A DNA stretch of 61,652 nt, filler included, from Sluysia triapertura (taxonomy: Eukaryota), in assembly GCA_046118255.1 (NCBI GenBank). It is 5 parts of 5 records of this genome, joined end to end, with 100 filler letters (N's around TTAATTAATTAA, not from the genome) between each part and the next. Parts side by side here need not be neighbours in the genome. Positions count along the whole stretch, not along the records: positions 11,344 to 23,929 come from JBJNIA010097218.1; 4 more parts are not named here. One strand, 5' to 3'. Below, piece by piece: positions 11,761 to 15,070 of the stretch. A program made the translations under genes and the position numbers. How positions within the stretch are numbered: the stretch's first letter is position 1; every line of letters begins with the position of its first letter. The notes beneath the pieces were generated by a model, which saw only the letters and a list, made by a program, of their open reading frames with translations, was not told the origin of the DNA and did not search any database.

Positions 11761-12830
11761 ATGGAGCAAACAGTAGAAGATTTAAGAGAATGCATTAAGC
11801 ATCTTTCAGTAAACATGAAACCCGCGGTTATTCTCCAAGAAATGCGTAAGTTCGGTGGAAATGAAGAAGAATTACGCAATTTTCTTTACGAATATGACAG
11901 CGTTGTAGAGGTCAACGGCTGGTCAGAAATAGATAAAATTAAAAGAATCCAAAATTACTTGACAGGCGTTGCTATTCAGACGTATAAAGAAATTGAACCA
12001 CAGAAAAAACAAGATTGGACTACATTTTTAAATGCGTTCACAGAGGAAATTGCTTTAGATGACATAGGTAAATATCATCTTAGAATGTTAAATATTAGGA
12101 AACAAAGAGAAGATGAAACTGTTTACGAATTCGCATGGGAGTTAAAATGTTTAGTAGTAAGAGCTAAAATACCTGACAATAAGAAAGAAGCAACGTTAAT
12201 AGATAAACTTAAGAATGGTTAAAGATTCGAATTACAAGTATTTGTAAGTTTAATAAATCTTAAACCGTTTAAGGAAGTAGTAAAATGCATTAAGGGGTAT
12301 TGAAAAATCACAAAAAGAAACTGAGAAATTACGAAAAGAAAAAGGTAATATAAATTATATAGATAAGGTTAAGACTGTTAGTTTAAGGAGTGAATCACCA
12401 AAACCAAAAAATAAACCTAGAGATTACTTCGAAGATAATGACTTTGAAACAAATAAACCTCAGGAAAATAAAAGAAATTAAACAGCTATGGTTCAAGAAA
12501 CAATTACCAAAATGAAGGAAAAAATTATCAAAATTCAGGAAGAGATTACCAAAATTCAGACAGAAATTATCAAAATACAAGAAGGACTACATAGGATTCG
12601 CCAGAAATTATTCGAACAATGGTTCCAGAGATTACGAGCAATGACCGACTCCCAGATGCCCAGCAACGATGGACAAATAAATAGTTTCGATAGAAATTAA
12701 AAAAAACCCATCTCGATCAAATTATAAAAAAAGAACTAATACCGAGGTAGAAATGATATGCCATAATTGTAATAAATCAGGACACTATGCTCGCAATCAT
12801 AACAAGCTGAAATCCGAAACTCTTAAACAA
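11761..12830 (+). mobile_element. Degenerate Ty3/Gypsy-like retrotransposon gag (capsid, coiled coil, zinc knuckle); no pol follows
   Basis: ORF 11761-12222 has Retrotrans_gag-like motifs (KFGG..EL.NFL..Y....NGW, YLTG.A, W..F..AF, RKQREDETVYEFAWEL). A frameshifted heptad coiled coil follows at 12488-12700, then a CCHC-type knuckle ICHNCNKSGHYARNH at ~12756-12800 with the last Cys changed to His. Confidence 0.85.
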
Positions 12831-12862
12831 AATTTCAATAAAAACAGAGAAAATTCTCCAAG

Positions 12863-13060
12863 AAGATACGTCTTTTAAATCTTTAACTGATACGTCTTTT
12901 AAATCTTTAACTGATACATCTTTTAAATCTTTAACTAATACTATTTTTAAATCTTTAACTAATACATCTTTTAAATCTTTAACTAATACATCTTTTAAAT
13001 CTTTAACTAATACTATTTTTAAATCTTTAACTAATACATCTTTTAACTCTTTAACTTTTT
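12863..13060. repeat. 24-bp tandem repeat, about 8 units (TCTTTTAAATCTTTAACTAATACA); encodes (VKDLKDVL)n on the minus strand
   Basis: Repeat units are directly visible, and minus ORF 12777-13295 stays open through them. Confidence 0.9.
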
Positions 13061-13769
13061 TCATATCCTGGGTTATCACATTTGTCGATCGCCACATTTC
13101 CATCTGCATGGATTTCGTGATATCACTACTTGGAATTAAAACTTTGAATTCACTCACTTTTTTGAACTGCATATTTTTAAATCTAACTTTGAAATAATTT
13201 TTGAAATGTATGTTTTGACCTTTGAATTTACCTTTGTTATGAACTATATAGTTCATAAAAACAAAAGCAATACAAAACAATTTCAATATGTTCAAAATTT
13301 ATCAAAATACATAACCAATACAATCATTAAATTTATGTAAAAATGCACGTAACAGATAGAAGTTGGTTTGATATCAATTGCTATATAAATTCAGTTTTGT
13401 TCCTTGACTTTTTGACAATGTAACGGTTATAAAACTAAAAACGAACATTTTAACATAGTGCAAATTGGGAATATTTTATTAAATAACATCTTTGAAGCTT
13501 TAAATAGTAAAAAATTAAGCACGATATGATATAAAGATAATTATATATATAAAATTAACATATTTAAAACAAATTCTAATACAAAAGAACGATATAACTA
13601 TTCTAACGCCAAAACAACATTTGTCATAGACTGCATTCATAGTGTAAGAAAACATTACAGCCAAATGACATGCAGCATTTTTAATACAGAAACTAATAGT
13701 ACTAACAGATTTTAATTACTCTATTAAACATGTAGTTGAAAAAATGTATTTCATTAGAATTTAGAACTA

Positions 13770-14025
13770 GAAGTTCCAAATAAGTCTTCTTAAGTACCAT
13801 ATTACTAAATTTTGAAACTCTTCAATAAAAGGTTCTGATAAATTTTGATACTCTGAACTGAGTTCCAACACACTTTGTCTTTAAACGTCCTGATGAGTGA
13901 TTCTGATAAGCGCTGATTTTCACAAATAGCCATGCAATCCACGTCATTTTGATATTCAATGATAAAATCTTCTGTCGAGATTTCAGATTTAGCTAAATCA
14001 TACCAATCAATAAACTCTCTTATAA
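13770..14025 (-). pseudogene. Tryptophan-repeat family protein remnant (LSEEFIREFKDKVDW-type repeats)
   Basis: Minus translation IIREFIDWYDLAKSEISTEDFIIEYQNDVDCMAICENQRLSESLIRTFKDKVCWNSV/(frameshift)EYQNLSEPFIEEFQNLVIW gives 3-4 repeats of ~23 aa matching the pattern YQxLSExFIxxFxDKVxW. Confidence 0.75.
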
Positions 14026-14569
14026 TTTATCAAATTATTTAAATAAGACATGTTTTAATTATTGATACAAATTTGGTTTATGATAAATATTTAAGCAAGT
14101 TTTAATTCAAACTGTAATGTCTCATAAATCATTTAAAGAGGCACAAACACATAGGTGTCTATGTTGAGTATAAAAATTTGATTTTTGATAAAACTTTGAT
14201 TAACATTAATTTATGTATTTATGATTCATTTTAATTATTTATGTTTTATTCTATTATTTATTTCAATTAGTTTAACTTCTATATCAATTATTATAATGTT
14301 ATTTTTATAAATTGAATTAAATTTATTAATTATTATTTTTTTAAATAAAATAAAATAAATCTAAATAATTTTATAAACAAAATTTTATATTTTGTTTAAG
14401 CAAATCAATTTATGAAAAATTGTAAATTTTGTTTAAACGAATCATTTTATAAATAAAAAATGTAGTATATAAGTACTGGATTTTAGCAGCCATATTTAAC
14501 CAAATTTCTAATGGTCATTTGTTAAAGATCTATGAAAGTAAGAATGTTTTTCTTTAAGTTTACAATTCT

Positions 14570-15070
14570 TATCGTAACTGTGAGAATTTAAAATCTACTC
14601 AGACCGTAATAAGGCTAAGTCAAAATAAATATAAAATCATTCCGCTAAAAACAAAAATTTTTAAGCGGCAAAATCATTATTATTTTTTATTGTTATTATT
14701 GTATTATTGTTTTATACTTGTTTTTCTTGTTTAAGCAGCTGTATTACCTTTATTTTAAGCAGAAATAAATTGCATTAGTATTGCATTGTGCTATTATGAT
14801 AGGAGAATTTAAAATCAATTTGTATTCTGCTAGACCTTAATAAGGTTAGCAAATAATTATTTTTTATTTGACCGTAAGAGGCTAACTTAAAATATAATTT
14901 TAATTGAATATATTTGTTGGAAATAAATACTATGTGACCATTATTAAACTTAAAATATTACGTGATTAAATTTAAAATCCTAATAGACCGCCTTCGTTCA
15001 TATTTAAGTTGTATCTATTAGGCGATCTCACCTCCATAATTCTTATTGCAAGTATAAGTTAAGCTTTCTT
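14570..15070 (+). repeat. Dispersed repeat family A, copy 2
   Basis: AGACCGTAATAAGGCTA-like motifs at ~14601, 14831 and 14869, followed by the same hairpin module as 8478-8590. Further partial copies lie near 27230 and 44150-44330. Confidence 0.7.

Follow-up and report, generated by a model that had tools for sequence, protein, structure and literature searches.

In the DNA of Sluysia triapertura analysed here, a broken gag gene of Gypsy type and a broken tryptophan-repeat gene stand tail to tail, and they are likely unrelated neighbours, not the two halves of one capsid-plus-cargo element. We favour this reading because the relatives of the two genes differ strongly in depth, an LTR-type terminus lies at 13080, the strand composition flips at 12867, and the 150 best homologues of the repeat gene carry no retroelement domains. 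A sequence-only reading of the same DNA had proposed either one LTR element with a viral-type gene captured in antisense or two unrelated insertions lying side by side, and it is the second proposal that fits the depth and terminus data.

The window, that is the whole stretch of DNA that was analysed (61,652 nucleotides, filler included), is eukaryotic and AT-rich (~24% GC), and harbors an amiloride-sensitive channel, a myosin exon and a C-type lectin. It contains ten runs of N, four of which are linkers of the form N44 + 12 bases + N44. We take these linkers to be artificial contig joins, which places the gag and the tryptophan-repeat gene on a single contig, 11344-23929 (12.6 kb). This contig is made up of piled-up repeats, which include a TIR element (16233-17134) and a unit duplicated at 15112 and 15416, and its coding density is 0.26, whereas the median at 80 loci of tryptophan-repeat relatives is 0.905. 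The features discussed below are collected in Table 1.

Table 1. Positions, strands and supporting evidence of the features around the gag and the tryptophan-repeat gene
Feature	Positions	Strand	Basis
Leader, likely LTR end and/or 5' UTR	11344..11760	+	Cut by contig edge at N-linker; depth, pyrimidine-rich start
Relic of a gag of Ty3/Gypsy type, with capsid, a low-complexity linker (21-bp array inside) and a single zinc knuckle	11761..12865	+	Atlas, stops, frame changes
21-bp array within gag linker	12492-12583		
Putative zinc knuckle (CCHC), last cysteine missing	12756..12797	+	PF00098 E 5.6e-4
24-bp array, 8 units, read as (VKDLKDVL)n; probably non-coding	12865..13056	.	TRF 93% matches; open-frame control
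LTR-type terminus, CA end on +, TG start on -	13057..13080	.	Sequence; depth step 10,054 to 154
Low-copy spacer downstream of repeat gene, perhaps decayed coding DNA	13081..13769	.	Depth 66-154; few stops; no Pfam family
Broken tryptophan-repeat gene	13770..14051	-	ATG at 14051; phrog_3532; Foldseek
AT-rich region upstream of repeat gene	14052..14827	.	Depth 286-469, near that of the gene
Core of family A, a multi-copy module that is non-coding and includes short palindromic motifs	14828..15087	.	Second copy at 8326-8611

The tryptophan-repeat gene

Tryptophan repeats had been reported on the strand opposite to the gag, and both of the peptides quoted for them were found there, on the minus strand. 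The gene consists of three 23-residue repeats and the beginning of a fourth, and is interrupted by two frame changes. Its unit, a tryptophan plus an LSE-FI-EF motif recurring with a period of 23 residues, is in register with gp045 and AgentSmith_158, and invariant columns are present in the alignment of family members. The two pieces of the gene match the phrog_3532 profile with E-values of 4.3e-11 and 6.1e-4. Matches were also obtained to seven phage records, one of them annotated as a 'tryptophan repeat gene family protein', and a search among 1.84 billion representatives returned 1,757 relatives at E<=1e-3, the nearest of which are metagenomic (43-52% identity over ~57 residues). The neighbours in the ESM Atlas are viral clusters, with a weak recognition that lies under the threshold of the tool, and word-index protein searches with the repeat ORF gave no relatives. 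Compared as sequence, the gene shows homology to the 23-residue family of large DNA viruses and jumbo phages.

Structure prediction, one of the checks suggested by the sequence-only reading, points the same way. A model based on a 20-row alignment (pLDDT 76) has two short helices per repeat and matches viral tryptophan-repeat proteins: the top 26 rows, among them named members from entomopoxviruses and phage G, have a Foldseek probability of 1.00, although the best E is no lower than 6.6e-3, and the top ten reach TM values of 0.72-0.80 over the query. No credible relative of the repeat was found in the PDB, where the best sequence matches are OspA constructs (E 1e-4) and the best fold match has a Z of 3.8, the query being a 58-residue helical model. 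For an intact member of the family the predicted fold is a short helical solenoid, which would presumably bind other proteins; for gp556, the family member of phage G, the function is described as unknown in the available part of PMC12484599. The copy present here is broken and would yield no working protein. On the evidence of its sequence, the stretch at 13770-14051 is a relic of the tryptophan repeat gene family and not an intact viral gene.

These repeats had been regarded as characteristic of viruses and foreign to ordinary animal genes. The viral half of this claim stands, since phrog_3532 and the Foldseek matches both lead to a family of entomopoxviruses and large phages, but the other half is overstated, as three of the 30 homologues examined for their source are gene models of two spiders and one beetle (Argiope KAF8766573.1, Caerostris GIY32772.1 and Ignelater KAF2900371.1), the 30 being composed of 10 taken by score or length, 10 closest by blastp and 10 hand-picked as possibly eukaryotic. 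Moreover, two endogenous viral elements of the tryptophan-repeat family are in print for ants, as far as the accessible text of PMC6540820 goes. The family is viral in character, yet already known from animal assemblies. In their N-terminal parts, the two gene models from spiders may resemble Maverick/Polinton capsid proteins; Pfam found no capsid family in them, and a single-sequence model gave a pLDDT of 44. None of the 150 best homologues of the repeat carries a gag, protease, RT or integrase family of Pfam, and a RING finger was identified in three of the 150. No viral gene families were found flanking the repeat gene.

The gag relic and the terminus at 13080

The gag starts with an ATG at 11761, and in the ESM Atlas its first ORF (153 aa) comes closest to clusters of Retrotrans_gag (score 0.93, recognition 3083), with a family or clan common to all 10 of the 10 best named matches. 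Pfam gave no direct match for the capsid ORF and the PDB none below E 0.1; similarly, no relatives of the gag were found in metagenome or viral contigs or by word-index protein search. In-frame stops and three or more frame changes disrupt the gene, and its putative zinc knuckle scores 20.3 bits against PF00098, 0.5 bit under the curated cut-off of 20.8. No protease, RT, RNase H or integrase family was detected in the contig 11344-23929 by Pfam in six frames with stops read as X, a scan that covered only some frames or ORFs within 11761-13081 and 13770-14100, and a six-frame motif scan of the whole contig returned no RT or protease motif and a single loose zinc-finger pattern, broken by stops. 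No pol in the order protease-RT-RNase H-integrase was therefore found 3' of the gag in this contig. The earlier description of a decayed gag that ends at its zinc knuckle and is followed by no pol is borne out by the Atlas score, the PF00098 match just under its cut-off and these empty scans. By inspection, the leader has no clear TG...CA end or primer site; no tRNA was found in the window, so that it offers no host tRNA for a comparison of primer sites. The stretch at 11761-12865 is assigned as a Gypsy-type gag fragment only, as no pol, paired LTRs, primer site or purine tract were found.

Right after the gag the proportion of purines drops from 0.63 to 0.40 (at 12867, change point 2dLL 53), which coincides with the start of the 24-bp array. 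The (VKDLKDVL)n open frame that had been read here as an ORF spans 12777-13298, and the array has one open frame per strand. We reject this ORF as a gene, because among 20,000 shuffled 24-mer units at least one open frame occurs in 99.3% and two in 92.3%, and because changes at the five positions that vary among the eight units mostly alter the residue.

The terminus that follows the array is presumably an LTR end, judging from the ends typical of LTRs and from the depth step. No clear primer-binding site or polypurine tract is seen by inspection on its outer side, and the DNA beyond 13080 thus resembles flank. No LTR partner is present in the window, in which the contig begins just 417 bp 5' of the gag, and the terminus motif has no match in viral contigs. 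It is possible, though we would give it distinctly less than an even chance, that this end is the 3' LTR of the gag element itself, which would then be a gag-only derivative; alternatively, another LTR may begin here on the minus strand.

Depth of the two genes and their neighbourhood

Depth was taken from the contigs of the one public run found to contain this DNA, aligned at 80% likeness to 11344-17400 in 30 bins of 202 bp, so that boundaries in depth are placed to within a bin. This run, for which no type is recorded, may be where the window itself comes from, and summed contig depth is no copy number. No RNA data set with this DNA was listed, which has no bearing on its expression. Read in this way, the summed depth is 319,803 and 34,047 in the leader and 26,983-189,430 in the gag up to 12757, then 3,785 followed by 10,054 over 12758-13161 (the latter in the bin 12960-13161). 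It amounts to 154, 66.5 and 74 in the spacer, 206 and 469 in the repeat gene, 286-326 up to 14777 in the direction of family A, and 1,733-3,568 in family A. In this one run the gag relatives are 57- to 920-fold deeper than those of the repeat gene. Among the variant sites listed, those in the gag are carried by 23-71 contigs, apart from two sites with 1 and 12, and those in the repeat gene by 1-2. The fold gap, together with this contrast, indicates that almost all gag relatives come without the repeat gene. By depth, and so only indirectly, this speaks for the outcome that the sequence-only reading had named as refuting its composite.

A 560-nt contig identical to 13263-13802 (0 differences) has a depth of 49.6, compared with 8-10 where other contigs match this copy exactly, suggesting that a few sister copies of the spacer plus the gene exist; these could all adjoin a gag. 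The single joints listed have depths of 23-30, with one at 54. Neither 12866 nor 13080 is bridged by any of the contigs listed (8 of >6,000 pieces). None of the 82 loci around repeat relatives matches the gag or the flanks by tblastn, and since these loci are phage, viral or metagenomic the result has little bearing on the host. Within the spacer, two frames have 10 stops each, where the 5th percentile of shuffled sequences is 11, and the last frame of the repeat gene runs on to 13083 with 10 stops in 229 codons (p about 0.02-0.05). A seven-helix receptor was considered for the spacer and rejected for want of a Pfam match.

On the other side of the repeat gene, no Pfam family was found in 14100-17501. 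The multi-copy family A of the sequence-only reading proved real, as its core aligns on the same strand with its second copy (nhmmer E 7.7e-11; z 16.8 against 200 local shuffles). The core has no Rfam match and a folding z of -1.9. Neither a gag nor a tryptophan-repeat gene lies beside the second copy, and family A has no similarity to the gag leader or to the 13080 terminus. At both copies, the first recognisable gene toward lower coordinates runs on the minus strand and starts 0.8 kb (the repeat gene) or 1.6 kb (the channel ORF at 6751) away, although two cases prove little, and the repeat gene reads away from family A. An extension of the family A homology toward the gene was rejected, the AT-rich DNA left of the core being at chance level (z 0.6 and 2.4). 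One contig joins 14147 to 15091. Since the depth of the gene is like that of the DNA leading to family A, the repeat gene may be a cargo of family A. Multiplication as a passenger of family A, for which the depth, this one joint and the two copies in the window speak, is a reading to which we give a little less than an even chance, and we would put plain duplication of the gene slightly lower again.

If the two genes are unrelated neighbours, the tryptophan-repeat gene would have come into the germ line, probably as an endogenous viral fragment, with a large DNA virus or a Polinton-type element as its source, would have been copied a few times, either with family A or by duplication, and would then have decayed. 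A piece of an abundant Gypsy family, which probably lost its pol half through deletion, would have landed in the downstream flank of this rare unit. The left piece would consist of the leader and the gag, and would stop at 12866, where the array and the LTR-type terminus begin.

The single-element alternative assumes a rare pol-less Gypsy subfamily, moved in trans, in which the repeat gene is an antisense cargo, with the gag on one side and a 3' LTR farther off (family A or beyond) on the other. The few copies of the spacer and the gene (depth 49.6-469) agree with it, as do antisense ORFs and tandem arrays inside the plant Retand Gypsy elements (available part of PMC11963269) and the accessory domains borne by planarian Burro elements (available part of PMC6431247). 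However, the 57- to 920-fold gap in depth, the trough of 66-74 between the gag and the gene, the LTR-type terminus in the same interval, the dissimilarity of family A and the gag leader, and the broken state of both genes make this composite very improbable. An origin of the arrangement in the assembly is somewhat less so, but still unlikely: a short-read assembler may have joined two loci through the 192-bp array, in which case the animal itself would not have the gag next to the repeat gene. The ten N runs in the window with their four N44 + 12 bases + N44 linkers, the location of the junction inside a tandem array that has very deep DNA on one side and shallow DNA on the other, and the absence of a bridging contig among those listed are all consistent with such a join, whereas all 30 of the 30 bins are covered, none of the joints listed skips the array, and the units of the array shift gradually along it, as in a single natural array.

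The repeat gene could also belong to a second LTR element, as an extra ORF in sense on the minus strand, with a 3' LTR starting from 13080 and cut by the gag piece. It does point to the minus-strand TG start at 13080, and the stop-poor continuation of its last frame to 13083 (10/229 codons) agrees with this. Extra ORFs in this position are common in LTR elements of rotifers, and mRNA capture by LTR elements occurs in animals, according to the accessible parts of PMC5408684 and PMC5131818, respectively. Against this stand the lack of a clear polypurine tract 5' of the TG, the fall in depth from 10,054 to 154 just outside the terminus, and the finding of no gag or pol upstream on the minus strand, and we regard a second element as scarcely probable. 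Two unrelated neighbours thus remain the likely explanation.

The locus is accordingly an ordinary repeat pile, whose one useful detail is the relic, in a few copies, of a gene family typical of jumbo phages and of large viruses with DNA genomes. This relic may be the trace of an earlier encounter with a Polinton-type element or a large DNA virus, and Polinton-related insertions are reported in flatworms in the available part of bioRxiv 10.1101/2025.04.19.649669. If the gene is a cargo of family A, then family A would carry a virus-derived gene. A true composite would be an animal Gypsy element with antisense DNA-virus cargo, a capsid-plus-cargo shuttle moving virus genes through the genome, and a record of an unknown large DNA virus. 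A weaker form of this idea, in which family A and not the gag element amplified the viral gene, is likelier than the shuttle, although it is itself doubtful.

Comparison with known elements

The left piece shares with Ty3/Gypsy (Metaviridae) LTR elements and their deletion derivatives a Retrotrans_gag-type capsid and very many relatives, as well as a putative knuckle and a presumed TG...CA-type terminus, and differs from these elements in that no pol, paired LTRs, primer site or purine tract were found. In planarians, the giant Gypsy elements called Burro have two to three knuckles, and their long polyprotein, read in frame, includes MATH, BIR, BCL2, ankyrin, env and pol, according to the available text of PMC6431247. 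The likeness to them consists of a gag with a knuckle followed by sequence other than pol, and of tandem repeats, which are drawn in the legend of a Burro figure in the same source. Membership was rejected, as a single knuckle is followed here by an array and no MATH, BIR, BCL2, ankyrin, env or pol was found.

Retand elements also have an antisense ORF and a tandem array downstream of the retroelement genes. In the part of PMC11963269 available, the ORFs sit within the element, ahead of the 3' LTR, are found again from copy to copy and in most cases code for the TRP28 domain, whereas the gene described here lies beyond the terminus and is far rarer than the gag (57- to 920-fold shallower). By the position of the terminus and by depth, we found no cargo that lies inside the LTRs and is common to the copies of the family. 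An LTR-mediated retrocopy, as in PMC5131818, would have pieces of one LTR element on either side of the captured gene. Here the LTR-type terminus is present on one side of the gene and family A on the other, with no similarity between the two. Among the titles and abstract beginnings searched, which included few subscription journals, none concerned a tryptophan-repeat cargo in a retroelement, the tryptophan-repeat family in flatworms, or an animal Gypsy element with an antisense DNA-virus cargo.

The repeat gene itself shares the 23-residue period, the consensus and the predicted two-helix unit of the tryptophan repeat gene family (entomopoxvirus AMV029, MSV027, MSV205 and MSV252; Bacillus phage G gp558-gp563; phage BpSp gp045; phrog_3532). 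Unlike the viral and phage members, the copy present here is reduced to three repeats and a stub, with two frame changes and no viral neighbours. It resembles the arthropod copies as a member of the same family inside an animal assembly, and lies here among relics of LTR and TIR elements.

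Repeats to the right of family A

Family A, a multi-copy non-coding repeat, has on its right a direct duplication whose arms share 82% identity over 123 nt at a spacing of 304 bp, and a further multi-copy stretch with a contig depth of 2,129-4,323 (summed in one run, and not a copy number) that has no partner copy within the window. The terminal-inverted-repeat (TIR) element on the same side, with a summed depth of 600-900 by the same measure, holds a minus-strand remnant with a putative likeness to the N-terminus of a hAT transposase (Buster/GTF2IRD2-type); a Pfam search with this remnant gave no match. 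Another remnant, on the plus strand, is LINE-like: its motif resembles the one at the C-terminal end of proteins from LINEs of the CR1/L2 type, and it likewise had no match in Pfam.

Positions of repeats, remnants, genes and linkers in the window
Feature	Position	Strand	Details
Amiloride-sensitive channel (ASC) sequence	4361-6751	-	two long ORFs
Myosin head, single exon	10264-10518		PF00063, E 7e-30
Direct duplication	15112-15234, 15416-15537
Further multi-copy stretch	15586-15989
TIR element	16233-17134		terminal inverted repeats 25 nt, 84%
hAT-like remnant	~16712-16900	-
C-type lectin, single ORF	20409-20984	-	N-terminus hydrophobic
LINE-like remnant	21296-21430	+
Two divergent ORFs	46155-47654, 47915-48454		N-termini hydrophobic
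Four linkers	11244-11343, 23930-24029, 35337-35436, 48403-48502		N44 + 12 bases + N44

Genes and ORFs

The second copy of family A has the ASC ORFs downstream, of 133 and 588 codons with a gap of ~220 bp, and this sequence is possibly an intron-poor cargo gene. The myosin head exon lies on a short piece flanked by N gaps. The two divergent ORFs have low-complexity bodies rich in Asn, Gly and Ser, and one of them contains a 24-bp coding array. Adjacency across the four linkers is not reliable.

Spider homologues and Polintons

Two spider gene models among the homologues of the tryptophan-repeat gene, P0017 and P0032, have a short segment in common in their N-terminal parts. These parts have a putative likeness to the capsid proteins of Maverick/Polinton elements; if true, Polintons could be candidate carriers of tryptophan-repeat genes in animals.
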